From: an uncultured Thermoanaerobaculia bacterium
GTDB lineage: Bacteria; Acidobacteriota; Thermoanaerobaculia; Gp7-AA8
Direction of reading: 5' to 3'
Length of the DNA stretch: 64,000 bases
Assembly (NCBI GenBank): GCA_964558905.1
Contig: CAZLGP010000178.1
Coordinates: 44,339 to 108,338, forward strand
A model generated the notes under the pieces. That model ran no database searches and was not told the DNA's origin. It was given only the letters and a program-made list of their open reading frames with translations. The position numbers and the translations under genes were made by a program. Positions within the stretch are counted from its first letter, which is position 1, and every line of letters starts with the position of its first letter. This document shows, piece by piece, positions 9,866 to 55,256 of this stretch.

Positions 9866-9976
9866 AGTGCTGGGTGCTGGGTGCTGAGTGCTGAGTCACA
9901 CCCACCCTGGGCCGGGGCGGGCGGTCTCAGCACTCAGCACTCAGCACTCAGCACTCAGCACTCAGCACTCAGCACT
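9866..9976. repeat. Tandem-repeat-armed hairpin, family A (heptamer GTGCTGA / TCAGCAC), copy A1
   Basis: Left arm agtgctgggtgctgggtgctgagtgctgagt (9866-9896). Loop with ccggggcgggcggt. Right arm (ctcagca)x7 at 9926-9976. Lies in the divergent region between the blaI-like gene (start 9801) and the DHS-like gene (start 10009). Confidence 0.9.
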
Positions 9977-10008
9977 TCGGTATGATTCGCGCCGTTTCAG
10001 GAGGTGCC

Positions 10009-10983
10009 ATGCCCGGACCCATCGCCCAGTTCATCGACCACCACTACCGCCACTTCAACGCCGCCGCGCTCAAAGCGGCCGCGATCGACTACAACAAACA
10101 CCTCGGGAAGGGCGGGCAGATGCTCGTCACGCTCGCGGGAGCGATGTCTACGGCCGAGCTCGGGCTGTCGCTCGCCGAGATGATCCGGCAGGACAAGGTG
10201 CAGGCCATCAGTTGCACGGGTGCCAATCTCGAGGAAGACATCTTCAATCTCGTCGCCCACGATTGCTACGAGCGCGTGCCGCACTACCGCTACCTTTCCG
10301 CGCTCGACGAACAGGCGCTGCTCGAGCGCCACATGAACCGCGTCACCGACACCTGCATCCCCGAGGGCGAGGCCATGCGCCGGATCGAGAAGGCCGTCCT
10401 CAGGCACTGGGTGGAGAAGGACCAGGCCGGCAAGCGGCTTTTCCCGCACGAGTTCATGTACGAGATCATCCGCGACGGTTCGATCGAAGAGTTCTACCAG
10501 ATCGATCCGAAGAGCTCCTGGATGGTCGCCGCTGCCGAGCGCAACCTCCCCATGTTCGTCCCTGGCTGGGAGGACTCCACCCTCGGGAACATGTACTCCG
10601 GCCACTGCATCTCGGGCGATGTGAAGAACGTCCACACCGTCCGCACCGGCATCGAGTACATGATCGAGCTCGCCGACTACTACACGAAGACCTCGGCGAG
10701 GTCGTCCATTGGTTTCTTCCAGATCGGCGGCGGCATCGCCGGCGACTTTCCGATCTGCGTCGTGCCGATGCTCCATCAGGACCTCCAGCGCGTCGAGGTC
10801 CCGCTCTGGGGCTACTTCTGCCAGATCAGCGACTCGACCACGAGCTTCGGCTCCTACTCGGGCGCGGTACCGAACGAGAAAATCACATGGGGCAAGCTCG
10901 GCGTCGACACGCCGAGCCACGTCATCGAGAGCGATGCCTCGATCGTCGCGCCGCTGGTGTTTGCCTACGTGCTGGGTTGGTAG
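10009..10983 (+). CDS. Deoxyhypusine synthase family protein (DHS-like / homospermidine-synthase-like)
   Basis: ORF 9982..10983. ATG 10009 is preceded by caggagg (9998-10004). LVTLAGAMSTAELG, CTGANLEEDIFNL, FFQIGGGIAGDFPICVVPM and SDSTTSFGSYSGAVPNEKITWGK are characteristic of bacterial DHS-like proteins. Confidence 0.8.
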   Translation: MPGPIAQFIDHHYRHFNAAALKAAAIDYNKHLGKGGQMLVTLAGAMSTAELGLSLAEMIRQDKVQAISCTGANLEEDIFNLVAHDCYERVPHYRYLSALDEQALLERHMNRVTDTCIPEGEAMRRIEKAVLRHWVEKDQAGKRLFPHEFMYEIIRDGSIEEFYQIDPKSSWMVAAAERNLPMFVPGWEDSTLGNMYSGHCISGDVKNVHTVRTGIEYMIELADYYTKTSARSSIGFFQIGGGIAGDFPICVVPMLHQDLQRVEVPLWGYFCQISDSTTSFGSYSGAVPNEKITWGKLGVDTPSHVIESDASIVAPLVFAYVLGW

Positions 10984-11008
10984 AGCACGATTCATTTAGG
11001 ATGGCGGC

Positions 11009-13792
11009 GTGAAATTCGTCGCCATCGCAATCCTTCTCCTCGCCTCCACGCAGGCACCAATCGAAACCCACATTCGTACGCTCTCCTCCGACTCGATGGA
11101 AGGTCGCGGGCTGGGCACGAAAGGGATCGGCAAGGCTGCCGACTACATCGAAAAAGAGCTCCGCACGATCGGTCTCGAGCCGGCCTTCGGAACGTCGTAC
11201 CGCCAGACGTTCCCTGTCAAAGTCGGCGTGTCTCTCGGCACCGACAATCACATCGACGGCCTGAACAACGATGAGTGGACGCCGCTCGGGTTCTCCAGCG
11301 CCGGGGCGTTCTCGGGACGGCTCGCCTTTGTCGGCTACGGCATCGAGGCGCCGCCGTTGAACTATCGCGAGCTCGAAGGCGTGGACCTGAAGGGCAAAGT
11401 TGCCCTGATGCTCCGCTACGAGCCCCAGGAGAAAGACGACCGCTCCGTCTTCGACGGCAGGAAGCCGAGCCGCTGGTCGGCGATGCGCTACAAGGCCATG
11501 CAGGCCCGCGAGCGCGGCGCGGTCGCGGTCGTCTTCGTCACCGGCCCGCTCCAGGATGAAGGAAAGGACAAGCTCCCCGCGCTCGCGAATGACGGTCCCG
11601 AGAGCCCGGCCGGCATTCCGATCATGCAGGTGAAGACGTCGACGGCGCAGAAGTGGCTCGACCTGGGCCAGTTTCAGACAGACGTCGACGCCGATCTGAG
11701 GCCGCGATCGCGGGTCCTCGACGCAACGCTCTCGGGCAATGTCGACGTGAAAGCGACGTTCGCCGAGGGGATCAACGTCGTGGGCGTCATTCCCGGTCGG
11801 GGCAGGCTCGCGAACGAGACCGTCGTCATCGGCGCGCACTACGATCACCTCGGCTACGGCGGCAAGGGCTCGATGCGGCCGAACGACACCGGGATCCACA
11901 ACGGTGCGGACGACAACGCCTCCGGTACAGCGGCGGTGCTCGTCGCCGCGAAGAACCTGCACGACGCGATGAAGACGGTGACGGTGCATCGCCGGATCGT
12001 CGTTGCGCTCTTCTCCGCGGAAGAGATGGGCCTCGGCGGCTCCGGGTATTTCGTCGAGAACGTGCCGATCCCGCTCGAGGGCATCAAAGCGATGGTGAAC
12101 CTCGACATGGTCGGGGCGATGAAGGACGACAAACTCGTCGCCCTCGGCGCGGAGTCGGCGCCGGAGTGGAAGCCGCTCCTCGATTCCATCGGCGGCGAGT
12201 TGAAGCTTGCCATCACCTCCAGCGGCGACGGCTACGGTCCCTCGGACCAGACGTCGTTCTACGCGAAGCAGATCCCGGTGCTGCACTTTTTCACCGGCTC
12301 TCACGAGCGCTATCACACACCCGATGACGACGCCGACGCGATCAACTTCGAAGGCGCCGCGAAGACCGCCGAGCTCACGGCCCGTGTGGCATCGACGATC
12401 GCGCGCGGCGAGGTCACCCCGACGTACGCGCGCATTGCCGCGGCGCCGGCGATGCAGGGCGACAGCCGAGGGTACGGCGCCTACCTCGGCACTGTCCCCG
12501 ACTTCACCGCGATGGAAGCTGCCGGCGGCGGCGTGAAGCTCGCCGACGTCCGCGCCGGCGGTCCCGCCGACAAAGCCGGCATCAAGGGCGGCGACGTGCT
12601 CGTCGAGATGGCGGGCACGCGTATCGAGAACCTCTACGACATGACCTACGCGCTGCAGGACCACAAGCCTGGCGAGACGATCGACGTGGTCGTGCTCCGC
12701 AACGGCGAGCGAGTCACGCTGCGAGCGACTCTCGGCTCTCGCGGAAGCATGGCCGCTCCTGCCGGAGCCCACGGCACGGCGCAAGCCTTCGAGATCAAGG
12801 CCGGCAAACCGTTCGAGAAGACGTTCGATGGCGAGAGACACCTCCAAAACGTCCGCCAGCTCACCTTCGGTGGCGAGAACGCCGAGGCCTACTTCAGTCC
12901 GGACGGGAAGAAGCTCATCTACCAGTCCACGCCGGAGCGCGGCGGATGCGATCAGCAGTACGTGATGGACCTCGCGACCGGCGAGACGAAGCTGGTGACG
13001 AGCGGCAAGGGCCGCACGACGTGCGGGTATGTCTCCTTCCCCGGGGGCGATCGTATTCTCTACGCGTCGACCGAAGCGTTCCAGAGCGAGTGCCCGCCGC
13101 CGCCTGACCGCAGCCGTGGCTACATCTGGGGCGTGTATCCCACCTACGACATCTTCATTGCGAAGGCCGACGGCTCGGAGAAGAAGCGCATCACCGAAAC
13201 GCCGGGATACGACGCCGAGGCGACCTGGTGCCACAAGGGGGGGAAGATCATCTTCACCTCGGTGCGCGACGGGGATCTCGAGCTCTATTCGATGAATGAA
13301 GACGGCGGCGACGTGAAGCGCCTCACCCACACCCCGGGGTACGACGGCGGCGCGTTCTACAACGCCGACTGCACGGAGATCGTCTGGCGCGCGTCGCGCT
13401 TCGCCGATCCCGCGGAGCTCGAGGACTACCGGAAGCTTCTCGCGGACGGATTCGTGAGGCCGTCGCGCATGGAGCTGTACGTGGCGAAGGCCGACGGATC
13501 GGACGCGAAGCAGATCACGAACAACGGCGCCGCCAACTTCGGCCCGTACTTCACGCCGGACGGCAAGCGCATCATCTACTCCTCGAACGTCCTCGATCCG
13601 CGCGGCCGGGAGTTCGACATCTTCATCGTGAACAAGGACGGCACCGGCGAGCCCGAACGGATCACGACCGCGCCCGCGTTCGACGGCTTCCCGATCTTCA
13701 GCCCCGATGGCAAGTGGATCGTGTGGGGCTCGAACCGTGCGAACCCCGAGGGACACGACACGAACCTGTTCATCGCGAAGTGGGTGGAGTGA
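11009..13792 (+). CDS. M28 family peptidase fused to a PDZ domain and a TolB-like beta-propeller
   Basis: GTG start. Signal peptide MKFVAIAILLLASTQA. M28 motifs VVIGAHYDHLGYG, HNGADDNASGTAAVL, FSAEEMGLGGSGYF. PDZ: GVKLADVRAGGPADKAGIKGGDVLVEMAG. C-terminal repeated FSPDGKKLIY / FTPDGKRIIY / FSPDGKWIVW propeller blades. Confidence 0.8.
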   Translation: MKFVAIAILLLASTQAPIETHIRTLSSDSMEGRGLGTKGIGKAADYIEKELRTIGLEPAFGTSYRQTFPVKVGVSLGTDNHIDGLNNDEWTPLGFSSAGAFSGRLAFVGYGIEAPPLNYRELEGVDLKGKVALMLRYEPQEKDDRSVFDGRKPSRWSAMRYKAMQARERGAVAVVFVTGPLQDEGKDKLPALANDGPESPAGIPIMQVKTSTAQKWLDLGQFQTDVDADLRPRSRVLDATLSGNVDVKATFAEGINVVGVIPGRGRLANETVVIGAHYDHLGYGGKGSMRPNDTGIHNGADDNASGTAAVLVAAKNLHDAMKTVTVHRRIVVALFSAEEMGLGGSGYFVENVPIPLEGIKAMVNLDMVGAMKDDKLVALGAESAPEWKPLLDSIGGELKLAITSSGDGYGPSDQTSFYAKQIPVLHFFTGSHERYHTPDDDADAINFEGAAKTAELTARVASTIARGEVTPTYARIAAAPAMQGDSRGYGAYLGTVPDFTAMEAAGGGVKLADVRAGGPADKAGIKGGDVLVEMAGTRIENLYDMTYALQDHKPGETIDVVVLRNGERVTLRATLGSRGSMAAPAGAHGTAQAFEIKAGKPFEKTFDGERHLQNVRQLTFGGENAEAYFSPDGKKLIYQSTPERGGCDQQYVMDLATGETKLVTSGKGRTTCGYVSFPGGDRILYASTEAFQSECPPPPDRSRGYIWGVYPTYDIFIAKADGSEKKRITETPGYDAEATWCHKGGKIIFTSVRDGDLELYSMNEDGGDVKRLTHTPGYDGGAFYNADCTEIVWRASRFADPAELEDYRKLLADGFVRPSRMELYVAKADGSDAKQITNNGAANFGPYFTPDGKRIIYSSNVLDPRGREFDIFIVNKDGTGEPERITTAPAFDGFPIFSPDGKWIVWGSNRANPEGHDTNLFIAKWVE

Positions 13793-13819
13793 TTCTCGGG
13801 AGGTAGGTAAGGGTCAGAC

Positions 13820-13917
13820 CCAGTCAGTCTCAAAGTCTCAAAGTCTCAAAGTCTCAAAGAGTGTTCTTGCCGCCCTCTTTGAGACTTTGAGACTTTGAGA
13901 CTTTGAGACTTGACTGG
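13820..13917. repeat. Tandem-repeat-armed hairpin, family B (octamer GTCTCAAA / TTTGAGAC), copy B1
   Basis: ccagtca(gtctcaaa)x4gag, 13-nt loop tgttcttgccgcc, then ctc(tttgagac)x4ttgactgg. Sits between convergent stops at 13792 and 13930. Confidence 0.9.
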
Positions 13918-13929
13918 ACGCTCCCCCTA

Positions 13930-14712: not shown

Positions 14713-14767
14713 CGCACGGGCAAGTCTCGGCCAGGCTTGCTCCGCGAGGCATGACCAAAGTCATGCC

Positions 14768-15358: not shown

Positions 15359-15440
15359 CGCGCGGTCGATTTTACTCCCGCACCGCCACGCATGATGAAA
15401 GTCATAGGAGCGGGCCTGGCCACGAGTACGCTGGGGAACA

Positions 15441-16834: not shown

Positions 16835-16984
16835 GAGTCTCAAAGTCTCAGAGTCTCAAAGTCTCAGAGTCTCAAAGTCTCAAAGTCTCAGAGTCTCAAA
16901 GTCTCAAAGTCTCAGAGTCTCAAAGTCTCAAAGAGTCCGTGATCACCCTCTTTGCGACTTTGCGACTTTGAGACTTTGAGACTC
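16835..16984. repeat. Tandem-repeat-armed hairpin, family B, copy B2 (asymmetric: 12 units versus 4)
   Basis: Left arm: 12 contiguous octamers alternating gtctcaaa/gtctcaga (16837-16932). Right arm: ctc tttgcgac tttgcgac tttgagac tttgagac tc (16948-16984). Preceded by ggtgggcggggg. Ends 9 nt before the crp/fnr ATG at 16994. Confidence 0.9.
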
Positions 16985-17677: not shown

Positions 17678-17752
17678 GTGACCCGTTGCCCGGGGAGGCC
17701 TACGGGCGACGGGTCACGGGCAACGGGTCACGGGCAACGGGCAACGGGCAAC
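17678..17752. repeat. Tandem-repeat-armed hairpin, family C (heptamers CCCGTTG / GGGTCAC-GGGCAAC), copy C2
   Basis: Short left arm gtgacccgttgcccg (17678-17692). Long right arm of about 7 heptamers (17703-17752). Fills the whole gap between convergent stops at 17677 and 17752. Confidence 0.85.
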
Positions 17753-26984: not shown

Positions 26985-27130
26985 CAACTCTGAGCGCAGC
27001 GAAGAGTCAACGGAGCCCCCAACTCTGAGCGCAGCGAAGAGTCAACGGAGCCCTCTCGTGAAGCGATCCTCGTGCGCATGAGGCTCGCTTTACGAGAGGG
27101 CTCCCTTGATCCTTCGCTTCGCTCAGGATT
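26985..27130. repeat. Family E long hairpin element, copy E1 (left arm tandemly duplicated)
   Basis: caactctgagcgcagcgaagagtcaacggagccc occurs twice in tandem (26985-27018 and 27020-27053). Inner stem ggagccctctcgt / acgagagggctcc. Right arm gagggctcccttgatccttcgcttcgctcaggatt (27097-27130) is shared almost identically with E2 and E3. Lies between convergent stops at 26975 and 27142. Confidence 0.85.
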
Positions 27131-29667: not shown

Positions 29668-29871
29668 GACGTAGTCTCAAAGTCTCAAAGTCTCAAAGTC
29701 TCAAAGCCTCAGAGTCTCAGAGTTTCAGTGTCTGAAGGTTCCTGAGTCTCGGAGTGTCAGAGCTGCAAGAGCTCAAAGCTGCAATCTCTCAAAGAGTGTG
29801 GGCAACGCCGTCTTTGAGACTTTGAGACTTTGAGACTTTGAGACTTTGAGACTCTGAGACTTTGAGACGTC
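29668..29871. repeat. Tandem-repeat-armed hairpin, family B, copy B3 (long decayed left arm)
   Basis: The left arm begins (gtctcaaa)x4, then degenerates (gcctcaga gtctcaga gtttcagt gtctgaag ... ctctcaaagag) to 29795. Loop tgtgggcaacgccg. Right arm has 7 units of tttgagac (29811-29871) touching the yjbQ stop codon (29870-29872). Confidence 0.85.
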
Positions 29872-30262: not shown

Positions 30263-30290
30263 GATCCGATCATATAATTCCAGTTACACA

Positions 30291-30378
30291 CGGTTGGCGG
30301 TTGCCGGTTGGCGGTTGGCGGCACATCGAAACGAGCCCCCGCCCTCCCGCCAACCGCCAACTGCCAACCGTCAACCGG
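30291..30378. repeat. Tandem-repeat-armed hairpin, family D (heptamer GGTTGGC / GCCAACC), copy D1
   Basis: cggttggcggttgccggttggcggttggcgg (30291-30321). Loop with cccccgccctc. Right arm ccgccaaccgccaactgccaaccgtcaaccgg (30347-30378). Lies in a divergent region, and the right arm ends 4 nt before the kinase ATG at 30383. Confidence 0.9.
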
Positions 30379-34653: not shown

Positions 34654-34654
34654 G

Positions 34655-34750
34655 AGTGCTGAGTGCTGAGTGCTGAGTGACGCTCCGCGTCAGGCAATCT
34701 TCGCGCCTGGGCGGGCGGGACTCAGCACTCAGCACTCAGCACTCAGCACT
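34655..34750. repeat. Tandem-repeat-armed hairpin, family A, copy A2
   Basis: agtgctgagtgctgagtgctgagt (34655-34678). 41-nt loop ending cctgggcgggcggg. Right arm actcagcactcagcactcagcactcagcact (34720-34750). Fills the gap between convergent stops at 34653 and 34754. Confidence 0.9.
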
Positions 34751-35209: not shown

Positions 35210-35336
35210 GACGTCGATTCTATTGCTTCATGCGGGGCAGCGCTCTCGGAGCGGCAGCCGTTCGTGCACGCGCAACACCCGCCGGAAGGCGCGGAATCCC
35301 GAGCGTCGAGCGAGGGACCTGGGCGGGAGGGGCTCG

Positions 35337-35560
35337 AAAAGGCCGGAAGGCCGGAAGGATGAAGGCCGGAAGGTCGGATGCGCGTGCGTGCCGCGCCACC
35401 CGCTTCGTCATCGGATTCGTCGTCCACGCCGGTACGGACACTTTTCCGCTGGCGCCGAAGATCTCCGCGGTTGCGCTGGCGAGGATTACCTGACGACTTG
35501 CGTCTCGAGTGAGGCCCGCACCGGCCGCTGAACGGCCGGCCTTTCAGCCGGCCTTTGAAT
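35337..35560. repeat. Family G inverted tandem repeats (octamer AAGGCCGG / CCGGCCTT), copy G1, arms about 145 nt apart
   Basis: Left: aaaaggccggaaggccggaaggatgaaggccggaaggtcgg (35337-35377), preceded by cctgggcgggagggg. Right: ccggccgctgaacggccggcctttcagccggcctttgaat (35521-35560). Confidence 0.65.
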
Positions 35561-35573: not shown

Positions 35574-38084
35574 TCAGTGCGAGTGCGCCGCGCCGTGGTC
35601 TCCGATGCGCATGCCATAAAACGACCGGTGCACGAAGAACATCGCGATCAGGAGGAACACGCCCGACAGGACCAGCGTGAGCGTGCCCTGTCCGGCGTTG
35701 GTCATTTCCACCGCGAGCTCGACAGCCAAAAGGCCGAAAAGGGTCGTGAACTTGATGACCGGGTTCATCGCCACCGACGACGTGTCCTTGAACGGATCGC
35801 CGACGGTATCGCCGACGACGACGGCCGCGTGCAGCGGCGTTCCCTTGGCCTTCATCTCCGTCTCGACGATCTTTTTCGCGTTGTCCCACGCGCCGCCGGC
35901 GTTGGCCATGAAGATCGCCTGGTACAGACCGAACAGCGCGATCGAGATGAGGTAGCCGATGAAGAAGAACGGCTCGAAGCAGGCAAATGCGAGCGTCGAG
36001 AAGAACACCACCATGAAGATGTTGAGCATTCCCTTCTGCGCGTACTGGGTGCAGATCTCGACGACCCTTTTCGAGTCTTCGACCGACGCCTTCTCCGCGC
36101 CGATGTCCAGCTTGATGTTGGCCTTGATGAACTCGACCGCGCGATAGGCGCCGGTCGACACGGCCTGCGTGGCCGCGCCGGTGAACCAGTAGATCACCGC
36201 GCCGCCGACGACCAGCCCGAGGAGGAACTGCGGGTGGAGGATGGAGAGCTTCTCGACGTTGATCGTGAGGCCGCGGGTGAGCATGACGATGATCGCGAAG
36301 ATCATCGTCGTGGCGCCGACGACGGCCGTGCCGATGAGCACCGGCTTGGCGGTGGCCTTGAAGGTATTGCCCGCGCCGTCGTTCTCCTCGAGGTAGTCCT
36401 TGCCCTTGTCCCACGCGGGAGTGAAGCCGAAGTCGCGCTGGATCTCTTCATCGATGCCGGGAAGCGTCTCGATGGTCGAGAGCTCGTAGACCGACTGGGC
36501 GTTGTCCGTGACCGGTCCGTACGAGTCGACGGCGATCGTCACCGGACCCATGCCCAGGAAGCCGAACGCGACGAGACCGAAGGCGAAGATGGCCGGCGCG
36601 ATCATGAGCGCGCCGGCGTCGATGGGGAACCTTCCGGCGATCCAGGCCGCGATGCCCATGAGACCGGCGATCGCCAGCCCCATCCAGTACGCGGAGAAGT
36701 TGCCGGCGATGAAGCCAGCGAGGATGTTCAGGGACGCTCCACCTTCCCGTGACGCGGTGACGACCTCGCGCACGTGGCGCGACTCGGTCGAGGTGAACAC
36801 CTTCACGAGCTCGGGGATGATCGCGCCGGCGAGCGTGCCGCAGGTGATGATCGTGGAGAGCTTCCACCACATCGTGGTGTCGCCGCCGAGGCTCGGGATG
36901 AGCACGTACGAGACGGCGTAGGTGACGGCCACCGAGAGGATCGATGTGAGCCACACCAGCGACGTCAACGGAGCCTCGAAGTTCATCTTGTCCGCGGAGC
37001 CGAAGCGCGCCTTGGCGAACGCTTCGTTGATGAAGTACGAGACGGCCGAGGTGATGACCATCAGCACGCGCATGACGAAGATCCAGACCAGGAGCTGGAC
37101 CTGGACGGCCGGATCGGTGACCGCGAGGAGGATGAACGTGATCAGCGCGACGCCGGTGACGCCGTAGGTCTCGAAGCCATCGGCAGTCGGCCCGACGGAG
37201 TCGCCCGCGTTGTCGCCGACGCAGTCCGCGATGACGCCCGGGTTGCGGGCGTCGTCTTCCTTGATGTTGAAGACGATCTTCATCAGATCGCTGCCGATGT
37301 CGGCGATCTTCGTGAAGATGCCGCCGGCGATGCGCAGCGCGGCGGCACCGAGGGACTCGCCGATGGCGAAGCCGATGAAGACCGGGCCGGCGTAGTCACC
37401 CGGCACGAACAGCAGAATCGCCAGCATGATCAGCAGCTCGGTGGAGATGAGGAGCATGCCGATCGACATGCCCGCCTTGAGAGGGATCGAGTAGGTGGGG
37501 AAGGGTTTGCCCCTCAGCGATACGAATGCGGTGCGCGAGTTCGCAAAGGTGTTGATGCGGATGCCGAACCAGGCCACACCGTAGCTGCCGGCGATGCCGA
37601 CGAGCGACGCGATGAGGATGATCACCACGCGCACGGCGTCGAAGTGACGCAGCAGGCCGAAATAGACCACCATGATCGCGCCGATGAAAAGCTCGAGCAG
37701 GAGGATGAACTTGCCCTGGGTGATGAGGTAGGTCTTGCAGGTCTCGTAGATCAGCTCCGAGATCTCGCGCATCGAGCGATGCACGGGCAGCCTCTCGAGC
37801 TGCACATACATCATCAGGCCGAAGAGCAGGCCGAAGACGCAGACGATCAGACCGCCGAGCAGAAGGCGATCGCCGCCCATCCCGAGGAACTGCACGCTGC
37901 CGAGATCCGGCAGCACGAGGTTGGCCTCGGAACGGTGTTCCATCGGCTGGCCCGCGAGCGGCGAGCTTCCCGGCGCGACCGCGGGATCCGCGGACGGATA
38001 CGCCTCCTGCGCGACGGCGACGCCACCGAGCGCGACGATACTGATCAGCGCGACGAGCAGTACGCGCATGGTCGTGGACTTCAT
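35574..38084 (-). CDS. hppA: Membrane-bound pyrophosphatase, divergent long form (836 aa) with Lys at the K+-independence position
   Basis: GGAGG lies 5 nt upstream of ATG 38084. N-terminal signal-like extension. Motifs IADCVGDNAGDSVGPTADGFETY, AGNTFKATAKP (Lys where K+-dependent enzymes have Ala), [33 protein letters not shown]. Confidence 0.9.
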   Translation of the reverse strand: MKSTTMRVLLVALISIVALGGVAVAQEAYPSADPAVAPGSSPLAGQPMEHRSEANLVLPDLGSVQFLGMGGDRLLLGGLIVCVFGLLFGLMMYVQLERLPVHRSMREISELIYETCKTYLITQGKFILLLELFIGAIMVVYFGLLRHFDAVRVVIILIASLVGIAGSYGVAWFGIRINTFANSRTAFVSLRGKPFPTYSIPLKAGMSIGMLLISTELLIMLAILLFVPGDYAGPVFIGFAIGESLGAAALRIAGGIFTKIADIGSDLMKIVFNIKEDDARNPGVIADCVGDNAGDSVGPTADGFETYGVTGVALITFILLAVTDPAVQVQLLVWIFVMRVLMVITSAVSYFINEAFAKARFGSADKMNFEAPLTSLVWLTSILSVAVTYAVSYVLIPSLGGDTTMWWKLSTIITCGTLAGAIIPELVKVFTSTESRHVREVVTASREGGASLNILAGFIAGNFSAYWMGLAIAGLMGIAAWIAGRFPIDAGALMIAPAIFAFGLVAFGFLGMGPVTIAVDSYGPVTDNAQSVYELSTIETLPGIDEEIQRDFGFTPAWDKGKDYLEENDGAGNTFKATAKPVLIGTAVVGATTMIFAIIVMLTRGLTINVEKLSILHPQFLLGLVVGGAVIYWFTGAATQAVSTGAYRAVEFIKANIKLDIGAEKASVEDSKRVVEICTQYAQKGMLNIFMVVFFSTLAFACFEPFFFIGYLISIALFGLYQAIFMANAGGAWDNAKKIVETEMKAKGTPLHAAVVVGDTVGDPFKDTSSVAMNPVIKFTTLFGLLAVELAVEMTNAGQGTLTLVLSGVFLLIAMFFVHRSFYGMRIGDHGAAHSH

Positions 38085-38307: not shown

Positions 38308-40377
<2,070 letters not shown>

Positions 40378-40385: not shown

Positions 40386-40475
40386 GAGTTAAGTAGGGTC
40401 AGACCCGGAAACTCTACTTAACTCTCCGCCGCCCACCCGTTAAGTAGAGTTTCCGGGTCTGACCCTACTTAACTC
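40386..40475. repeat. Family F element: perfect 37-bp inverted repeat with self-complementary arms
   Basis: gagttaagtagggtcagacccggaaactctacttaac (40386-40422) and its exact reverse complement (40439-40475). 16-nt spacer tctccgccgcccaccc. Each arm is itself a hairpin (gagttaagtag ... ctacttaactc). Lies between convergent stops at 40377 and 40474. Confidence 0.9.
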
Positions 40476-43571: not shown

Positions 43572-43608
43572 AGGCGTGGCGGGAAGCCCCGCCCAGCGCG
43601 CGCGAGAC

Positions 43609-43696
43609 GCGTGCGCGTCAGCCGCCGGGACGGCGGCGGTCGGGAGAGTCGGCCCGTTCCAGCGGACCGCCGACGTCGCGCCGGCTGACGCCCGGG
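43609..43696. repeat. Hairpin repeat, family H copy 2 (expanded interior)
   Basis: gcgtgcgcgtcagccgcc (43609-43626) is identical to 7003-7020. cgtcagccg pairs with cggctgacg (43682-43690), followed by cccggg as in copy 1. Confidence 0.7.
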
Positions 43697-43765
43697 CGTC
43701 CCGCCCGCGCCCTGGAGTTTTGGACATTTCGGGGTGCCGCGGGCAGATCGTCCCGAAGGGACTTC

Positions 43766-43936
43766 AGAGGGTAGCCGGTGGCAAGCGCAAAAGCGCCGCC
43801 ACCGGAAGAAGACGGCATGCAGGAAGTCCGCCCCGGAGGGGCGGAAGAGGTTCTCTGCCGCCCCTCCGGGGCGGATCATTCGCGGACGCGCCGTTTCCGG
43901 TGGCGGCGCATTCGCGCTCGCCACCGGCTACCCTCT
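43766..43936. repeat. 171-bp nested palindrome (40-nt outer arms, perfect 17-bp inner inverted repeat)
   Basis: Outer arms: agagggtagccggtggcaagcgcaaaagcgccgccaccgg (43766-43805) and ccggtggcggcgcattcgcgctcgccaccggctaccctct (43897-43936), with about 4 mismatches. Each arm also self-pairs (ccggtggc...gccaccgg). Inner repeat: ccgccccggaggggcgg (43828-43844) and ccgcccctccggggcgg (43858-43874). Confidence 0.85.
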
Positions 43937-44092
43937 TTACGCGCCTCCGGCGCAGCTGCCCGAGGATAAAGTTAACGCCATTGCGGCTGAAAAGCCGGGG
44001 CTATTTCCTCATGCCCGCTACGCGGGCGTTTGGGCAACAGACCCTGAAGCGGGCCCGCGTAGCGGGCCCGCCCGCGCCCTTGAAGTCAACGA

Positions 44093-44769: not shown

Positions 44770-44796
44770 AAAAAAAGACGCTCGTTGCCGAGCGTC
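44770..44796 (-). terminator. Canonical Rho-independent terminator after the upstream OmpA paralog
   Basis: Minus strand reads gacgctcg gcaa cgagcgtc ttttttt: 8-bp GC-rich stem, 4-nt loop, 7-U tract. Confidence 0.8.
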
Positions 44797-45572: not shown

Positions 45573-46742
45573 ATGACGCGGCTTCGGCCCGCGTCGCGCG
45601 GGTGTACCATGCGGGCCGTGCCGCCCGAGTCCAACCTGAGGAACGTTCTCCGCAACCTTCTGCAATACGGGGACTTAACCTTTCGCGACTTCGTCGAGCT
45701 GGCGCTGTATCACCCTGACTTCGGGTACTACGCGCGACACGAAAATCCGATCGGGAAGGGGGCGGATTACGTCACCGCTCCCACGCTCAGCCCCGTTTTT
45801 TCGTTCGCTCTCGGCAGCCTCGTCCGCGAGTTCGTGCGCCGCAGCGAGGGCGCACTGTGCTCCATCGTGGACATCGGATGTGGCGATGGCGGACTGATCG
45901 AAGCGCTTGCCCGTTGCCCGTTGCCCGTTGCCAGTCCGGTGAGATTTCTCGGAGTCGATCGCGAGCTGGGTCGTGCTGCGCCTGGCGACGCGACGCCTGG
46001 ACGACTCGTCGACTACGTCCGCACGGTCGACGAGCTTCCTCGTGACGGCGCACATCTCTTTCTCTCCAACGAGTTGTATGACGCGTTCCCGTTCGCCCGC
46101 CTGGTCCGTCGCGGCGAGCATGTGCACGAGCTCTGGGTTCGAGAGCGCGATGGAGCTCTCGACTGGACGGAGCGTGAGGCGCCGGCCGCATACGACGACT
46201 ACTTTGCCGATCACCGGATCGAGTTGGCCGAGGGTCAGTTCGCGGACGTCTCGCTGGAGTGGGAGGCGTTTCATGCCGATGTCGTGCGATTTCTGCAGCG
46301 CGGACTGATCGTCACGATCGACTACGGCCATCCTGCAAAGACGCTTTTTCATCCGCGCGCCCGGCGCTTCGGAACCGCGGCCGCCTACGCGGGCCAGCGC
46401 GTGTCGCGCGATCTTCTGGCGAATCCCGGCGAGCAGGATCTCACGGCGCACATCAACTTCAGCGACCTCGAGCGCGCCGGCGAGCGCCACGGCGCGACGA
46501 CGCTCTTCTTCGATCGTCTCGCGAAGTTCCTTCTGTCCCTCGGCATCGCCGAGCACGAGCTCTTCCGTCCCTTGCACGAGATGACCATCGAGAATCCGGA
46601 ACAGGGGCTGGCGCTCAGGGAGGCGCGGGAGGAAGCGCGGCGGCTCGTGCTGCCTGATGGGATCGGCGAGGAGATGCGTGTGCTGGTCCAGGCGAAGAAC
46701 GTCGAGCTCGCCGGCTGGTCATTCCAGACGTGGCCCTCGTAG
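45573..46742 (+). CDS. SAM-dependent methyltransferase, MidA/NDUFAF7 (DUF185) family
   Basis: FVELALYHPDFGYYA...GKGADYVTAPTLSPVFSFALG, SAM motif IVDIGCGDGGL, FLSNELYDAFP, DLTAHINFSDL, all typical of the MidA family. Alternative start at 45609. Confidence 0.8.
   Translation: MTRLRPASRGCTMRAVPPESNLRNVLRNLLQYGDLTFRDFVELALYHPDFGYYARHENPIGKGADYVTAPTLSPVFSFALGSLVREFVRRSEGALCSIVDIGCGDGGLIEALARCPLPVASPVRFLGVDRELGRAAPGDATPGRLVDYVRTVDELPRDGAHLFLSNELYDAFPFARLVRRGEHVHELWVRERDGALDWTEREAPAAYDDYFADHRIELAEGQFADVSLEWEAFHADVVRFLQRGLIVTIDYGHPAKTLFHPRARRFGTAAAYAGQRVSRDLLANPGEQDLTAHINFSDLERAGERHGATTLFFDRLAKFLLSLGIAEHELFRPLHEMTIENPEQGLALREAREEARRLVLPDGIGEEMRVLVQAKNVELAGWSFQTWPS
45907..45932. repeat. Family C heptamer array (TTGCCCG x3) inside the MidA CDS, single arm
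   Basis: ttgcccgttgcccgttgcccgttgcc. Three 7-nt units make 21 nt, so the frame is kept. Encodes LARCPLPVA directly after the GCGDGG SAM-binding loop. Confidence 0.8.
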
Positions 46743-48629: not shown

Positions 48630-48669
48630 GGCCGGCGGTCTGTAGAAGTCCTGTCGAGCGAGCGATCCA

Positions 48670-50045: not shown

Positions 50046-50139
50046 TTGGATCGTTGCCCGTTGCCAGTTGCCCGTTACCAGTGCTGTTTTCGCCCGCGCG
50101 AGAAACGCACTGGTAACTGGTAGCTGGGAACCAGCAACT
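50044..50139. repeat. Family C hairpin, copy C4, in the nuoB-nuoC junction
   Basis: agttggatcgttgcccgttgccagttgcccgttaccagtgc (50044-50084) pairs imperfectly with gcactggtaactggtagctgggaaccagcaact (50107-50139). The loop has its own small stem (gttttcgc / gcgagaaac). Confidence 0.75.
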
Positions 50140-50141
50140 CA

Positions 50142-50966: not shown

Positions 50967-50976
50967 AGCCTCTTCT

Positions 50977-51009
50977 CCCGCCAACCGCCAACCGCCAACC
51001 GCCAACCGG
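50977..51009. repeat. Family D heptamer array (GCCAACC x4), single arm, in the nuoC-nuoD junction
   Basis: cccgccaaccgccaaccgccaaccgccaaccgg. No complementary arm seen nearby. Followed by GGGAGG (51012-51017) and the nuoD GTG at 51024. Confidence 0.85.
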
Positions 51010-51023
51010 CCGGGAGGTGGCTC

Positions 51024-52139: not shown

Positions 52140-52144
52140 GGCGA

Positions 52145-52247
52145 AGTGCTGAGTGCTGTGTGCTGAGTGCTGAGTCCCGCCCACCGGGGCGCGAATCGAC
52201 CACGGCTCGGAGAGCCACTCAGCACTCAGCACTCAGCACCCAGCACT
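52145..52247. repeat. Tandem-repeat-armed hairpin, family A, copy A3, in the nuoD-nuoH junction (opposite orientation to A1/A2)
   Basis: agtgctgagtgctgtgtgctgagtgctgagt (52145-52175). The loop starts cccgcccacc. Right arm actcagcactcagcactcagcacccagcact (52217-52247). Confidence 0.9.
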
Positions 52248-52275
52248 GCACGGCCGAGGCGATGGAGGCGAGTTC

Positions 52276-53412
52276 TTGAACGAAGCGTTGATGACATACC
52301 TGATCTGGCCGGTCGCGAAGTACATCGCGGCGTTCGTGGTCGTCCTCACCATCGTGGCGGTGATGACCTGGATCGAGCGCCGCGGGTTGGGCCTGATGCA
52401 GGCCCGGCTCGGTCCGAACCGCGTCGGCCCGCAGGGTCTCCTTCAGATCATCGCCGATCCGGTGAAGCTGCTCCTCAAGGAAGACATCCTCCCCGCGCGG
52501 GCCGAGAAGGTCGCGTACTTCCTCGGACCGATGCTGCCGATCGTTCCGGCCCTGATCGTGTGGTGTCTGATTCCGTTCGGCCCGCCGCCGGATTTCGCGG
52601 TGACGCGGGTGAACGTGGCCCTGCTGCTCATCCTGGCCCTCACCTCCACGTCGGTCTACGGCATCATCCTCGGCGGCTGGGCATCGAACAACAAGTACTC
52701 GCTGATGGGCGGGCTGCGCTCGGCCGCGCAGGCGATCTCCTACGAGGTGCCGTTCGGGCTGTCGGTCATCGGCGTGCTGATGATCACCGGCAGCCTCGAT
52801 CTCGTGCAGATCGTGCGGTATCAGGAGGCCAACGGCTGGAACCTCCTCACGCAGATCGTGGCCGCGTTCATCTTCTTCGTGTCGATGAACGCGGAGAGCA
52901 ACCGCACGCCGTTCGATCTTCCTGAAGCGGAGTCGGAGCTCGTCGCCGGCTACCACACCGAGTATTCGGGGATGAAGTTTGCGTTCTTCATGCTCTCCGA
53001 ATACGCGGCCATGCTCGTCAACTCCGCCCTTCTGGTGACGCTGTTCTTCGGAGGGTGGTCGCTGGGGATGTTCGGCTTTGGGCTGACCACAGAAGTCATG
53101 GCCGGTATGGGCATCATGGGTGGCCTGCTCGGGGTGCTGATCTTCCTCGGCAAAGTGATGTTCTTCATGGTCGTCTTCGTCTGGTTCCGGGCGACCTTCC
53201 CCCGGTTCCGCTTCGATCAGCTCATGGACCTCGGCTGGAAGTTCATGATCCCCCTCGCGCTGGCGAACATCTTCGTCACCGGGATCTTCATTCTCGCTGG
53301 CCAGGAGCGGCTGATGACATGGGTCGGCCTCGGCACGATCGCCCTCATCGCGTTCTACCTCTTCCGGCCGAAACGCGTACCGGCGAAGCAGAAGGTGGCT
53401 CATGCAAGTTGA
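52276..53412 (+). CDS. nuoH: NADH-quinone oxidoreductase subunit H
   Basis: TTG start with GGAGG 7 nt upstream. ERRGLGLMQARLGPNRVGPQGLLQ, ESNRTPFDLPEAESELVAGYHTEYSGMKF. Confidence 0.95.
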   Translation: MNEALMTYLIWPVAKYIAAFVVVLTIVAVMTWIERRGLGLMQARLGPNRVGPQGLLQIIADPVKLLLKEDILPARAEKVAYFLGPMLPIVPALIVWCLIPFGPPPDFAVTRVNVALLLILALTSTSVYGIILGGWASNNKYSLMGGLRSAAQAISYEVPFGLSVIGVLMITGSLDLVQIVRYQEANGWNLLTQIVAAFIFFVSMNAESNRTPFDLPEAESELVAGYHTEYSGMKFAFFMLSEYAAMLVNSALLVTLFFGGWSLGMFGFGLTTEVMAGMGIMGGLLGVLIFLGKVMFFMVVFVWFRATFPRFRFDQLMDLGWKFMIPLALANIFVTGIFILAGQERLMTWVGLGTIALIAFYLFRPKRVPAKQKVAHAS

Positions 53413-53965
53413 GTATCCGAAGCCGAGGTGGTCGGAGAAGTTCCTGCTCCTGGACCTTCTCGAGGGTCTGAAGACGACGCTACGCGAGCTCTTCAAGCCG
53501 AAAGTGACCATCCGCTATCCGGAAGAGCGGATGGAGCCGGTGGACCGGTTCCGGGGCATGTTCAAGTTCTCCTATGACCGTTGCATCGCCTGCAAGCTCT
53601 GCGCGGTGGCCTGTCCGATCGACATCATCTACATCGACGTCCACGACGACATGATCGAAGAGGGCGGAAAGAAGAAGAAGGTCAAGGTCCTCGACCGCTA
53701 CGACATCGACGTGAAGCGCTGCATGTTCTGCTCGCTCTGCGAAGAAGCGTGTCCCACGAAACCGAAATCGATCTGGCTCACCACCAAGACCTACGAGTTG
53801 GCGAGCTACGACCGCAACGATCTCTATTTCAACATGCAGCAGCTCGAGTATTGGGACGACCGTCCTAAGTACACCGGGCTGCCGGACGACGAAAAGCCGG
53901 CCATCGACGATGCCCGGCTGCTCTCGGATGGGAGCAAGGATGAAGGAGGAAGGATGAAGGGATGA
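53402..53965 (+). CDS. nuoI: NADH-quinone oxidoreductase subunit I (2x[4Fe-4S])
   Basis: CIACKLCAVACP and CMFCSLCEEACP. Overlaps nuoH by 11 nt. The last ~10 codons (SKDEGGRMKG) lie in the family G repeat arm. Confidence 0.95.
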   Translation: MQVEYPKPRWSEKFLLLDLLEGLKTTLRELFKPKVTIRYPEERMEPVDRFRGMFKFSYDRCIACKLCAVACPIDIIYIDVHDDMIEEGGKKKKVKVLDRYDIDVKRCMFCSLCEEACPTKPKSIWLTTKTYELASYDRNDLYFNMQQLEYWDDRPKYTGLPDDEKPAIDDARLLSDGSKDEGGRMKG

Positions 53966-54022
53966 ATGATGCAGGCCGGCCGCGGAGCGATCCGTCCTTC
54001 CGCCTTCATCTTTCGACCTTCA
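53936..54022. repeat. Family G hairpin (AAGGATG-type units), copy G2, spanning the nuoI 3' end and the nuoI-nuoJ junction
   Basis: aaggatgaaggaggaaggatgaagggatgaatgatg (53936-53971) versus tccgtccttccgccttcatctttcgaccttca (53991-54022). Confidence 0.7.
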
Positions 54023-54036
54023 GTTTTCCCTGAGCA

Positions 54037-54717
54037 ATGGACAGCGTCACTTCACAGATGCCCCTCCTCGTGTTCCTGGTGATCGGGACGATCGCCGTCG
54101 CGTCGTCGATTCTCGTCGTGGCGATGCGCAATCCCGTTCACTCCGCGCTCTTCCTGCTGCTGACGTTCCTCTGCGTGGCGGTGCTCTTCGTCATCAAGTC
54201 CGCGGAGTTCGTCGCGGCCGTGCAGGTGCTCGTCTATGCGGGCGGCATCATGGTCCTGTTTCTGTTCGTGGTGATGCTGATCAACTACCGGCATCTGCCC
54301 GAGGAGCGGGTGATGTCGAAGGTGTGGCTCGGCGGAATCGGCGTCGGCCTGGCGGTCTTCGTCCTCTTCTTCTTCCTCGTGCGCAACGGTACCTACGCCG
54401 AACAGGTGCCGGACGCGGCGAAGAAGCTCGGCACGGTGACCGAGACGTATCTCACGGAGCACCCGAGCGACCCGAGCAAGATGGTCCGGCGCACCCGCGA
54501 GCGCGAGAACCGGAACTCCGAGGCTCTGGGGATGGCCCTGTATCGCGACTATCTCGTGCCGTTCGAGGTCGTATCGCTGTTCCTGCTCGTGGCCATGATC
54601 GGCGCGATCGTCATCGGCAAGCGGGAGTTGTCCGCCGAGGAGGAGGAGGCCACGCCGCACTTCATCCTCGAGAGGGCGGAAGTGGAGAAGGAAGTGAAGG
54701 AGGCCATGAATGCCTAG
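54037..54717 (+). CDS. nuoJ: NADH-quinone oxidoreductase subunit J
   Basis: NPVHSALFLLLTFLCVAVLFV...AEFVAAVQVLVYAGGIMVLFLFVVML is the NuoJ/ND6 signature. Confidence 0.9.
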   Translation: MDSVTSQMPLLVFLVIGTIAVASSILVVAMRNPVHSALFLLLTFLCVAVLFVIKSAEFVAAVQVLVYAGGIMVLFLFVVMLINYRHLPEERVMSKVWLGGIGVGLAVFVLFFFLVRNGTYAEQVPDAAKKLGTVTETYLTEHPSDPSKMVRRTRERENRNSEALGMALYRDYLVPFEVVSLFLLVAMIGAIVIGKRELSAEEEEATPHFILERAEVEKEVKEAMNA

Positions 54718-54723
54718 CCGCGG

Positions 54724-54829
54724 GTCAACTCTGAGCCGCGCAGCGGGGAAGAGTCAGGTGAGCCCACTGGAGGCCCGTGGTTTTGCACCTCGTGAGGGCT
54801 CCCTTGATCCTTCGCTTCGCTCAGGATTG
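54724..54829. repeat. Family E long hairpin element, copy E2, in the nuoJ-nuoK junction
   Basis: Left arm gtcaactctgagccgcgcagcggggaagagtcaggtgagccc. Right arm gagggctcccttgatccttcgcttcgctcaggattg. Followed by GGGGAGG and the nuoK ATG at 54843. Confidence 0.85.
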
Positions 54830-54842
54830 CGGGGAGGCTCCC

Positions 54843-55145
54843 ATGCCTAGCACCGCCCAATACCTGATGCTCTCCGGCACTCTGTTCGCGGTCGGTCTGG
54901 TCGGTGTGATCGTCCGCCGGAACATGATCACGGTGCTGATGTGCATCGAGCTGATGCTCAATGCCGTGAACATCAATCTCGTGGCCTTCGCCCATCGCCT
55001 GGCGGACCTGCAGGGGCAGGTCTTCACCGTGTTCGTGATCACGATCGCGGCCGGCGAGGCGGCGGTCGGCCTGGCCATCATCATCCAGTTGTACCGGATG
55101 CGGTCGACGATCAACGTGGACGAGGTCAAGACGCTCCATGGATAG
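54843..55145 (+). CDS. nuoK: NADH-quinone oxidoreductase subunit K
   Basis: From ATG 54843: [40 protein letters not shown]...[13 protein letters not shown] is the NuoK/ND4L signature. Confidence 0.95.
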
Positions 55146-55153
55146 CCGCCGAA

Positions 55154-55256
55154 ATACTCTGAAGAGCGAAGCGAAGAAGAGTCAGCGGAGCCCCCGCGTG
55201 GCCTGTGGCTCGGGTGTCGAGAGGGCCCCCTTGATCCTTCGCTTCGCTCAGGATTG
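55154..55256. repeat. Family E long hairpin element, copy E3, in the nuoK-nuoL junction
   Basis: Left arm atactctgaagagcgaagcgaagaagagtcagcggagccccc. Right arm gagggcccccttgatccttcgcttcgctcaggattg, ending 3 nt before the nuoL ATG at 55260. Confidence 0.85.

Follow-up and report, generated by a model that had tools for sequence, protein, structure and literature searches.

Hairpins built from tandem arrays of short units have been described in bacteria before. The short tandemly repeated repetitive (STRR) sequences, usually made of 7-bp repeats, can form hairpin loops and are "not unusual in filamentous cyanobacteria" (PMC2670836). One STRR hairpin lies between hupS and hupL in four species, where its function is unknown and may concern transcript stability, translational coupling or termination (PMC2670836). 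For Xanthomonas, 70 and 75 cases per genome have been reported in which two arrays of the heptamer GGGAATC converge on opposite strands; the array length varies across species, the single or paired type is preserved, and the arrays form G-quadruplexes (G4), by which the authors explain them (Rehm et al. 2015, PMC4692102). More generally, heptanucleotides are the most abundant class of long simple sequence repeats (LSSRs, units of 5–11 nt) in many genomes, and slippage was proposed as the cause, according to the summary of Mrazek 2007 given in PMC4679880. Here we have analysed a stretch of 64,000 nt from an uncultured Thermoanaerobaculia bacterium (contig CAZLGP010000178.1, positions 44,339 to 108,338; hereafter the window), where several unrelated families of hairpins have arms that are head-to-tail arrays of a 7–8-nt unit. 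A reading of the sequence alone (the sequence-only reading) had taken them for an undescribed repeat class. This claim falls, since the same design is published for filamentous cyanobacteria (PMC2670836) and for Xanthomonas (PMC4692102). That is, the elements belong to a known kind, STRR or long-SSR heptamer arrays in hairpin form, although we have found no report of such arrays for this phylum and the kind is mechanistically unexplained. We consider it somewhat better than an even bet that they are palindromic microsatellites, seeded by a hairpin and amplified by slippage, whose arms stay complementary through conversion and/or selection and whose hairpins are tolerated or serve in a terminator-like way.

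With Tandem Repeats Finder (TRF), our own periodicity scan, an inverted-repeat search and RNAfold, we have found in the window 12 tandem-arm hairpins (three each of families A, B and C, together with D1, G1 and G2), two lone arrays, and four long non-tandem hairpins (three copies of E, and F; Table 1). The coordinates of all elements listed in the sequence-only reading hold under these methods, TRF giving perfect or nearly perfect arrays at each of them, and so does its central observation that one design is common to several families with unrelated units. The non-tandem hairpins which it had named are also real, E at three sites and F as a perfect 37-bp inverted repeat. According to the inverted-repeat search the arms are 30–55 nt long and 85–100% complementary, and in the RNAfold check each tandem-arm hairpin folds into one long stem, with predicted energies between −48 and −111 kcal/mol. 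In total, the window contains 25 arrays of 6–9-nt units, which make 7 strict inverted pairs, plus 5 imperfect ones; 16 arrays have a period of 7 nt and 8 a period of 8 nt, with at least 2.8 copies in each of these (TRF). By comparison, 40 dinucleotide-preserving shuffles of the window gave a mean of 2.0 arrays and no inverted pair at all. What the families have in common is the period and not the sequence, as would be expected of palindromic microsatellites.

The elements are biased towards intergenic sequence. Ten of 14 sites fall within the 21% of the sequence left non-coding by a crude mask of open reading frames (ORFs; P = 6e-5), and when orthologues are used to set the gene starts, the number rises to 12 of 14, which leaves C3 and C4 inside genes. 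As had been described from the sequence alone, they occupy convergent gene ends (B1, C1, A2, E1, F), divergent or 5' untranslated regions (5'UTRs; A1, D1) and operon interiors. The nuo operon holds C2 (B–C), D2 (C–D), A3 (D–H), G2 (I–J), E2 (J–K) and E3 (K–L), and B2, B3 and G1 lie between other co-directional genes. D1 is probably a 5'UTR hairpin, because it fills the space from a TATAAT box to the start codon of a kinase gene. The operon hairpins stop just short of the GGAGG of the next gene. Moreover, a long hairpin stands at all five well-separated convergent junctions that we have checked (B1, C1, E1, A2, F). No T run follows any tandem hairpin. Canonical terminators in the window are confined to the hairpin that may have seeded G1 and three other sites, and nowhere in the window are canonical terminator-like sites enriched over shuffles; the three U-tract terminators that the sequence-only reading had named (44770–44796, 62226–62257, 62550–62586) are real.

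How does this locus compare with the described systems? Like STRRs, the elements consist of tandem 7-nt units, several unrelated units occur in one genome, the position is intergenic or intercistronic, and inverted arrays are able to form hairpins; GTGCTGA itself, the unit of family A, occurs in paired arrays in Nostoc, Calothrix, Anabaena and others. The features of the STRR and heptamer LSSR kind found here are three or more head-to-tail copies of a unit of 5–11 nt, five unrelated unit families in 64 kb, a mostly intergenic position and hairpin capability. On the other hand, the host is not a heterocystous cyanobacterium but a soil metagenome-assembled genome (MAG) of the Thermoanaerobaculia (Acidobacteriota), to whose MAG proteins window proteins are 99–100% identical, NuoD at 99% and two others at 100%, and the G+C content of the window is ~65%. 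In addition, one window family has an 8-nt unit, more arrays are paired than in the low-GC loci of the scan described below (14/21 versus ~17%), and for the polarity, arm co-evolution and seed hairpins presented below we have found no description for STRRs in the literature. As in the Xanthomonas repeats, tandem heptamer arrays come in pairs that lie near each other on opposite strands and between genes; as we read the wording of PMC4692102, its "convergent" pairs have the G-rich arm 5', which matches the polarity seen here. The difference is that one G4-forming unit dominates there, whereas at least five unrelated units occur here in 64 kb, and none of the window units GTGCTGA, AGTCTCAA, GTTGCCC (the unit of family C), CGGTTGG and AAGGATG contains a G3 tract. 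As for LSSRs, an excess of heptanucleotide tandems in scattered phyla, with slippage proposed, agrees with our observation, and the summary of Mrazek 2007 in PMC4679880 does not mention hairpin pairing, polarity or arm co-evolution. CRISPR arrays are different in that they consist of 25–40-nt direct repeats with unique spacers, whereas the window units are 7–8 nt long, contiguous and arranged in inverted pairs. Rfam at gathering score gave no match on either strand of the 64 kb.

The architecture is widespread. A scan for (GTGCTGA)3 in one genome per species has returned at least 120 loci from at least eight phyla, where the arrays are often paired. Among the matches listed, the hosts are Nostocales, Acidobacteriota (Blastocatellia, Pyrinomonadaceae, Thermoanaerobaculia), Chloroflexota, Gemmatimonadota (Longimicrobium), Planctomycetota, Chlorobiaceae, Nitrospirota and others. 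In 0.88 Mb of the loci from other phyla, 337 of ~420 arrays have period 7, with dozens of unrelated units, and an inverted partner lies within 250 nt for ~27% of the arrays in high-GC loci and ~17% in low-GC loci, versus the 14/21 of the window. The sharing of GTGCTGA across phyla could be taken as a sign of horizontal transfer. We have rejected this, as the same loci hold dozens of other heptamer units; because each genome holds many units, the recurrence of one of them among 185,000 species is expected and is not evidence of transfer.

To follow individual sites, we have compared syntenic DNA of relatives (loci denoted L with a number), whose NuoD proteins are 82%–99% identical to that of the window and whose nucleotide identity ranges from ~76% to 92%. 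L121 (the nuo region) and L128 are at 89–92% nucleotide identity, and L129 and L130 mostly at 82–90%, with one L130 block at 76%; L122, L125 and L138–L141 cover the nuo region, with NuoD 82–88% identical. The two arms gain and lose units independently of each other. In the window itself, A1 has 4.4 versus 7.3 units and B2 has 12.2 versus 4.2. At the orthologous site of A1, L130 has 2 units per arm, and the loop of the L130 version holds a second hairpin; the copy number of G2 differs from that of L121 in both arms. In G2, the left arm (53931–53965) supplies the C-terminal seven residues of NuoI together with its stop codon; the reading frame enters the array through a 1-nt indel relative to L121, and thus the array has extended a conserved protein. 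Within B2 and B3, variant units are not mirrored between the arms.

At other sites the unit itself has changed throughout the array. The nuoC–D array is (CGCCAAC)4 in the window versus (TGCGCTC)4 in L121, at the same position and phase and with the same copy number, so that every unit differs at 4 of its 7 positions; in L122 the place is taken by a full hairpin, whose right arm GCGCAACC resembles the window unit. Likewise, all units of C3 have changed, from GTTGCCC in the window to GTTGCCG in L130. C2 is conserved in L121 with point changes, and E2 is ~97% identical to its L121 copy. C4 is perfect in the window; at this place L121 has a degenerate 7-periodic stretch of equal length, and so the window copy was homogenised in frame.

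The clearest series comes from the nuoD–nuoH junction, where hairpins of the window, L121, L122 and L138 are orthologous and have diverged units. Counted in the same phase from the stop codon, the left-arm units are GCTGAGT (window), GCAGAGC (L121), GCAGAAG (L122) and GTTGAAT (L138), neighbours in the series having 5 of 7 positions in common. The sequence-only reading had supposed that the complementarity of the arms is maintained, and this junction bears it out: in a unit-level alignment of the four species, 4 of 7 pairs have changed on both sides and 96.4% of cells are paired, from which we infer slippage together with conversion and/or selection. The covariation score is 0.619 versus 0.266 in shuffles (0 of 500 reach it), and sliding the partner abolishes the signal. 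Together with the altered unit numbers of G2 and A1, this supplies the change in copy number and the compensatory change between relatives that had been proposed as a check. We had at one time considered a wholesale replacement of this hairpin between the window and L121; the idea was revised, since 5 of 7 unit positions are in common, the phase is the same and the loop is partly orthologous. An inversion ("flip-flop") of the loop between the two is not supported either, as the inverted match reaches only the 95th percentile of shuffles.

A further observation concerns L121 alone. Its lone nuoC–D array (6547–6573) is mostly (CTGCGCT)n, the last two units being CTGCGCC (TRF, 95% matches), and (CTGCGCT)n is the exact complement of the left arm (AGAGCGC)n of its nuoD–H hairpin (7712–7742), 1.1 kb away, whose own right arm has one mismatch per unit. 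The nuoD gene of L121 is therefore bracketed by long-range complementary arrays.

The elements are also polymorphic in their presence. Tandem hairpins are far fewer in the syntenic 21–43 kb of L128, L129 and L130 than in the window. At the B3 site, L128 has no tandem hairpin, only 22 nt between the aligned flanks, which hold the 20-nt palindrome-like GCAGAGTCGTCGACTACTGC; at the F site it has 6 nt instead, and F is absent. Neither of these two empty sites shows a target-site duplication. B1 and B2 are missing in L130, and E3 is an insertion relative to L121, where it is absent. The sister genomes that lack B1, B2, B3 and F are 85–90% identical to the window. Some junctions carry different hairpins in different genomes: the def/DUF4920 junction carries A2 in the window and an E-type non-tandem hairpin in L128, and the M28/YwiC junction carries B1 in the window and a non-tandem hairpin of another palindrome family in L130. 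D1 is present in L128 but decaying, by changes that break pairs. The nuo operons of L139 and L140 are compact and without tandem-repeat hairpins, nuoD and nuoH overlapping by 4 nt; that of L140 has no intergenic hairpins at all, and that of L139 has a single non-tandem one (nuoC–nuoD).

Several sites in relatives look like seeds. The H+-pyrophosphatase (H+-PPase) gene is followed by a terminator, AAAGGCCGGCG-TTTC-CGCCGGCCTT, at the same place in L128 (then a further T) and L129 (then C), and it is kept in the window at 35533–35560. The G1 unit AAGGCCGG is the 5' arm of this terminator, amplified ~150 nt away. At the D1 site, L129 has only a small hairpin, CCGGTT-acacag-AACCCGG, and the unit of family D is CGGTTGG. 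The palindrome-like stretch at the B3 site of L128 contains a B-like CAGAGTC. The short version of A1 in L130, with its 2 units, is a further seed-like case.

Sequence has also been exchanged between loci. The loop of A3 is chimeric: one stretch, GAATCGACCACGGCTCG, aligns with the loop of the L121 orthologue at a score of 17, which equals the 99th percentile of shuffles, and another, CCCGCCCACCGGGGCGCGAA, aligns with the inverted A2 loop at a score of 25, beyond that percentile. Loop sequence is common to A1 and A2 and to C2 and C3 as well. The statement of the sequence-only reading that no self-copying family could produce this architecture was thus too strong; since copies of one family have loops in common, whole elements or conversion tracts are copied from locus to locus. 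Nearby sites often belong to the same family (B–C and D–H in L125; C–D and D–H in L121; B1 and B2 in the window), and the pattern of loops and families fits patchy ectopic conversion better than transposition.

We have also found that the paired arrays are polar. A pair with unit X can be laid out as (X)n-loop-(rcX)n or as (rcX)n-loop-(X)n, and each layout is the same on both strands and folds equally well. All 36 A-family pairs, from the window and the loci listed in the scan of at least 120 loci, are GTGCTGA-first. Of 56 non-A pairs, 40 have more G than C in the 5' arm, 6 have more C than G and 10 are tied; once duplicate loci are removed by hand, about 29:2 remain, and 6 ties. An excess of purines (35:15) or of A over T (29:22) predicts the 5' arm of the non-A pairs less well. 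In the Thermoanaerobaculia loci, which were not chosen by unit, a hand count gives 14 families with a G-rich 5' arm, 2 without (B and C, both of the window) and 1 tied. A metagenome scan aimed at the opposite arrangement of A met 7 genuine hairpins, and neither A polarity was found in viral contigs. Overall, the polarity is a strong bias and not an absolute law. Because the layout is strand-symmetric, the direction of transcription or replication cannot explain it, nor can the thermodynamics of the stem. Several causes may be thought of, all of them speculative: a nascent G-rich 3' end could slip where it stalls at the foot of a hairpin in the template, G-rich nascent strands could fold back and prime, or an SbcCD-type cut through the centre of the hairpin could expose G/T-rich 3' strands on either side. 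Recombination proteins prefer G/T-rich 3' strands.

How palindromic microsatellites would arise at such places can be sketched as follows. The seed would be a short intergenic stem-loop, whether an ordinary terminator, a small palindrome or a REP-like hairpin. A stretch of 7–8 nt in each arm would be duplicated, slippage would then amplify it to a tandem array, and the stem would grow to 30–55 bp of repeated units. The arms would gain and lose units separately, and unit variants would sweep through an array by homogenisation within the arm, i.e., concerted evolution. The complementarity of the arms and the identity of dispersed family copies would be restored by recombination or gene conversion (arm with arm, locus with locus) and/or by selection for stem stability. 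Such hairpins would persist where a strong hairpin is harmless or useful: just past stop codons at convergent ends, in the gaps between cistrons ahead of the ribosome-binding site that follows, and in 5'UTRs. Those at convergent ends probably act as U-tract-less bidirectional terminators or 3'-end protectors.

Certain observations weigh against this explanation. Slippage alone explains neither the amplification of both arms nor the polarity. The covariation test used consensus units from four species in a phase that we chose, and the right-arm variant taken for L138 was the matching one. The L121 stem at nuoD–nuoH has a C.C mismatch in every unit, and therefore each arm is homogenised alone and complementarity is restored later. 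For the seeds, the direction of change is ambiguous, as a short palindrome could instead be the remnant of a deletion. Close relatives would be expected to keep a hairpin on which expression depends, yet several elements are missing there and D1 decays in L128. When 19 operon-internal hairpins with an unambiguous sense strand were folded as RNA, the sense strand was more stable in 7 and the antisense strand in 12; this weak test reveals no specific tolerance of G.U pairs at the transcript level. In addition, slippage as the engine, conversion as the coupling and any role as terminator or stabiliser are what we infer from comparison among relatives.

The polarity could alternatively be the trace of one specific, undescribed polar DNA process common to several phyla, of which the hairpins would be footprints and neither selected RNA structures nor plain slippage products. 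In the common layout, the G-rich strand of each array runs 5' to 3' toward the hairpin centre, as if telomere-like arrays had been joined by their heads, and this is seen in cyanobacteria, in Acidobacteriota and in Xanthomonas. One variant of the process would start with an SbcCD-style break at the centre, after which the two G/T-rich 3' ends would invade out of register or be extended; break repair would then amplify both arms together and favour one polarity. We regard this idea as possible but rather unlikely.

Another possibility is that the hairpins are selected RNA elements, namely U-tract-less (bidirectional) terminators, 3'-end protectors comparable with the REP/BIME of enterobacterial operons, or RNase III processing sites that set the stoichiometry of the nuo cistrons, their tandem make-up being a side effect. 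Transcript stability or termination has been proposed for the cyanobacterial STRR hairpins (PMC2670836). The window fits this in several respects: some hairpin stands at all five separated convergent junctions, at two of which relatives have a different hairpin; the unit changes at nuoD–H are compensatory; the hairpins end before the next ribosome-binding site; canonical terminators are scarce; and the G1 unit comes from a real terminator. Like intrinsic terminators, the elements have a strong GC-rich stem just past stop codons, bidirectional at convergent genes. U-tract-less "I-shaped" terminator stems exist in high-GC bacteria. Nevertheless, the tandem hairpins differ from intrinsic terminators by the missing U-tract, by repeat stems of 30–55 bp, and by their occurrence also in operons, 5'UTRs and genes, and five strong stems in an 11-gene operon are hard to square with termination. 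G.U-compatible pairing is not in excess on the sense strand; B1, B2, B3 and F are missing in close relatives, L139 and L140 do without tandem-repeat hairpins in the operon, D1 decays in L128, and only 6 nt separate the convergent PPase and GAF genes there; some arrays are lone or intragenic (C3, C4). The weak fold test and the polymorphism among relatives argue against RNA function as the primary cause, and we hold such an origin to be unlikely. That long hairpins are regular at convergent junctions, canonical terminators scarce and ribosome-binding sites left free does suggest that effects on expression act at least as a filter on the hairpins, and the latter may serve as terminators.

It is also conceivable, though to us quite improbable, that the elements are non-autonomous and mobile, i.e., REPIN- or MITE-like hairpins copied to intergenic sites, possibly into hairpins, by a transposase encoded elsewhere, with the tandem units as secondary slippage. 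Families A, B and C recur at three or four sites each, where ~1,170 heptamer classes are possible. Copies have loop sequence in common, and A3 is inverted relative to A2. B3 and F are present or absent in sister genomes, the window is much richer in elements than the syntenic L128, L129 and L130, and in L130 and L122 tandem hairpins hold E/H-type hairpins within their loops. F, with its two GTAG-tagged palindromes in inverted order, resembles a REPIN (PMC3733652). As intergenic hairpin-forming repeats after genes and between cistrons, the elements are comparable with REP/BIME sequences and with REPINs, in which two inverted copies make a long hairpin, and F and the E family do resemble this kind. 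A REP family, however, has one conserved imperfect palindrome of 20–40 nt, whereas here we see arrays of a 7-nt unit without a conserved tag; copies of A, B, C and D have in common the 7–8-nt unit and only parts of the loop, and a conserved palindrome is found only in E and F. Unlike at MITE (miniature inverted-repeat transposable element) insertions, there is neither a target-site duplication nor a clean boundary at the empty sites of B3 and F in L128. Neither a Y1_Tnp (RAYT) domain nor another transposase was found among the called genes of ~150 kb of relatives' loci or the 20 window proteins scanned. Orthologous hairpins shift their unit gradually, stepwise with 5 of 7 positions in common, and are not replaced; lone arrays and the intragenic homogenisation of C4 are unlike products of transposition, and the tendency of nearby sites to the same family, as in L125 and L121, fits local conversion.

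The elements might also act at the level of DNA, as phased sites for a nucleoid or regulatory protein, or as G-quadruplex, i-motif or cruciform, as proposed for the Xanthomonas GGGAATC repeats. The strand-symmetric polarity without a sense-strand bias would agree with this, as would the G4 formation by GGGAATC arrays (Rehm et al., PMC4692102). The units, however, are unrelated (GTGCTGA, AGTCTCAA, GTTGCCC, CGGTTGG, AAGGATG and others), so that no single sequence-specific binder fits, the G3 tracts for G4 are missing, and the 7–8-nt period is out of phase with the DNA helix, which makes a role of this sort very improbable. Finally, although the contig comes from a short-read metagenome bin and exact copy numbers could be mis-assembled, we give an assembly artefact hardly any chance, because the arrays are shorter than a read pair and the same architecture occurs at syntenic sites of independent assemblies from different samples and centres (L121–L141) and in complete isolate genomes, e.g., Calothrix PCC 7716 and Nostoc NIES-4103.

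The individual elements are collected in Table 1.

Table 1 Repeat elements of the window, with arms given in the order left/right and neighbouring genes with their strand
Element	Type	Position	Strand	Anatomy	Site
A1	tandem-arm hairpin	9866–9976	.	(GTGCTGR)x4.4 / 30-nt loop / (TCAGCAC)x7.3	divergent region, blaI-like (−) and deoxyhypusine synthase (+)
A2	tandem-arm hairpin	34654–34750	.	GTGCTGA x3.7 / TCAGCAC x4.4	convergent def (+) and DUF4920 (−)
A3	tandem-arm hairpin	52145–52247	.	chimeric loop	nuoD–nuoH junction, inside nuo operon
B1	tandem-arm hairpin	13826–13911	.	(AGTCTCAA)x4.2 / (CTTTGAGA)x4.4, perfect 36-bp stem	convergent M28 peptidase (+) and YwiC (−)
B2	tandem-arm hairpin	16836–16983	.	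unequal arms, 12.2 vs 4.2 units	alginate-export gene and crp, both +
B3	tandem-arm hairpin	29673–29868	.	6.9 / 7.1 units, interior units degenerate	yjbQ and lpd-like gene, both −
C1	tandem-arm hairpin	17678–17752	.	GACCCGTTGCCC vs GGGCAAC, GGGTCAC units, right arm longer	convergent crp (+) and S9 peptidase (−)
C2	tandem-arm hairpin	50052–50138	.		nuoB–nuoC junction
C3	tandem-arm hairpin	9104–9190	.		within BlaR1-like M56 peptidase gene (7080–9410, −)
C4	lone array	45904–45932	.	(TTGCCCG)x3.7	within Methyltransf_28 gene
D1	tandem-arm hairpin	30291–30377	.	(CGGTTGG)x4.4 / (CCGCCAA)x4.4	between TATAAT box (30273–30278) and kinase ATG (30383)
D2	lone array	50975–51008	.	(CCGCCAA)x4.4	nuoC–nuoD junction
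G1	hairpin	35339–35560	.	array (AAGGCCGG)x5 at 35339–35378, plus terminator hairpin 35533–35560	
Terminator of G1	terminator hairpin	35533–35560	−	GGCCGGC...GCCGGCC then TTT; orthologous in relatives	downstream of H+-PPase (−) gene
G2	tandem-arm hairpin	53931–54022	.	AAGGATG/AAGGAGG units vs CCTTCAT	nuoI–nuoJ junction
E1	non-tandem hairpin	27025–27126	+	~105 nt; 35-nt direct duplication at 26985–27053	
E2	non-tandem hairpin	54725–54842	+		nuoJ–nuoK junction
E3	non-tandem hairpin	55146–55253	+		nuoK–nuoL junction
F	non-tandem hairpin	40386–40475	.	perfect 37-bp inverted repeat of two inverted GTAGGGTCAGACCC motifs, REPIN-like	convergent H+-PPase (+) and GAF (−)

The non-tandem hairpins deserve some description of their own. 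F is a GTAG-tagged palindrome in a REPIN-like layout, and a third copy of its motif, GTAAGGGTCAGACCC, lies directly left of B1 (13807–13821). The motif GGGTCAGACCC occurs in the window only beside B1 and in both F arms; when one mismatch is allowed, its core has 6 matches (three sites on both strands) versus 1.6 expected. In the E family, whose hairpins measure ~105 nt, the right arm GGGCTCCCTTGATCCTTCGCTTCGCTCAGGATT is highly conserved, and its exact sequence was found only in L121 among the fetched loci; E-type copies occur at L121 10263–10387 and L128 14275–14385. All E copies are oriented like the upstream gene, and G.T pairs occur in the stem when it is read on that strand; this hints that the element works at the RNA level or depends on its orientation.

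A related hairpin family, "H" (GTCATCCTGAGC...GCTCAGGATGAC, with the core CCTGGGCGGG), sits in the loops of tandem-heptamer hairpins in two relatives, L130 and L122. Its places are L130 ~4330–4470 (the orthologous site of A1), L122 16548–16650 (nuoL–M) and 12916–13037, and L129 15765–15800. Hairpins thus seem to accumulate inside other hairpins. A half copy of H also adjoins the G1 array in the window (35298–35335). Between DUF4920 and the H+-PPase gene, L128 (14921–15956) and L129 (16362–17390) have a ~1 kb radical-SAM/SPASM gene that is missing from the window, where 216 nt (35298–35513) with the H half-element and the G1 array stand in its place. This suggests that the gene was lost by a repeat-associated deletion. 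Two more long inverted repeats, GC-rich and non-tandem, lie at 43596–43710 and 43737–43965, with arms of 46 nt at 83% complementarity and of 71 nt at 79%, the latter 87 nt apart.

As for the gene content, the window carries a blaI/blaR1-like pair, peptidases, two H+-pyrophosphatases, a Ser/Thr kinase and the nuo operon (48.6–60.5 kb), which has the 11-gene form nuoA-B-C-D-H-I-J-K-L-M-N without nuoE, nuoF and nuoG and is followed by ATP synthase genes in L122, L125 and L126. The two membrane H+-pyrophosphatase genes lie side by side and are divergently transcribed (35574–38084, −; 38308–40377, +), an arrangement also found in L128. One ORF (1212–6908, −) has 1,898 codons and a coding-like GC3 (G+C at third codon positions) of 0.88, without a Pfam domain.

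In several large bacterial phyla, tandem heptamers rank among the commonest repeats that still lack an explanation, and their hairpin form has been noted only in passing. The set of loci analysed here constitutes a clean comparative series, as the same operon junctions can be followed across about eight relatives. We have seen the elements accompany the loss of a gene (radical-SAM) and extend a coding region (nuoI), and in practice they will confuse the assembly and annotation of soil MAGs. What seems to be new is the unit-level covariation at orthologous sites, the seed in a terminator arm and the polarity rule. These make the origin of bacterial heptamer repeats more testable, and equally the role that such hairpins may play as terminators in bacteria with few canonical ones.

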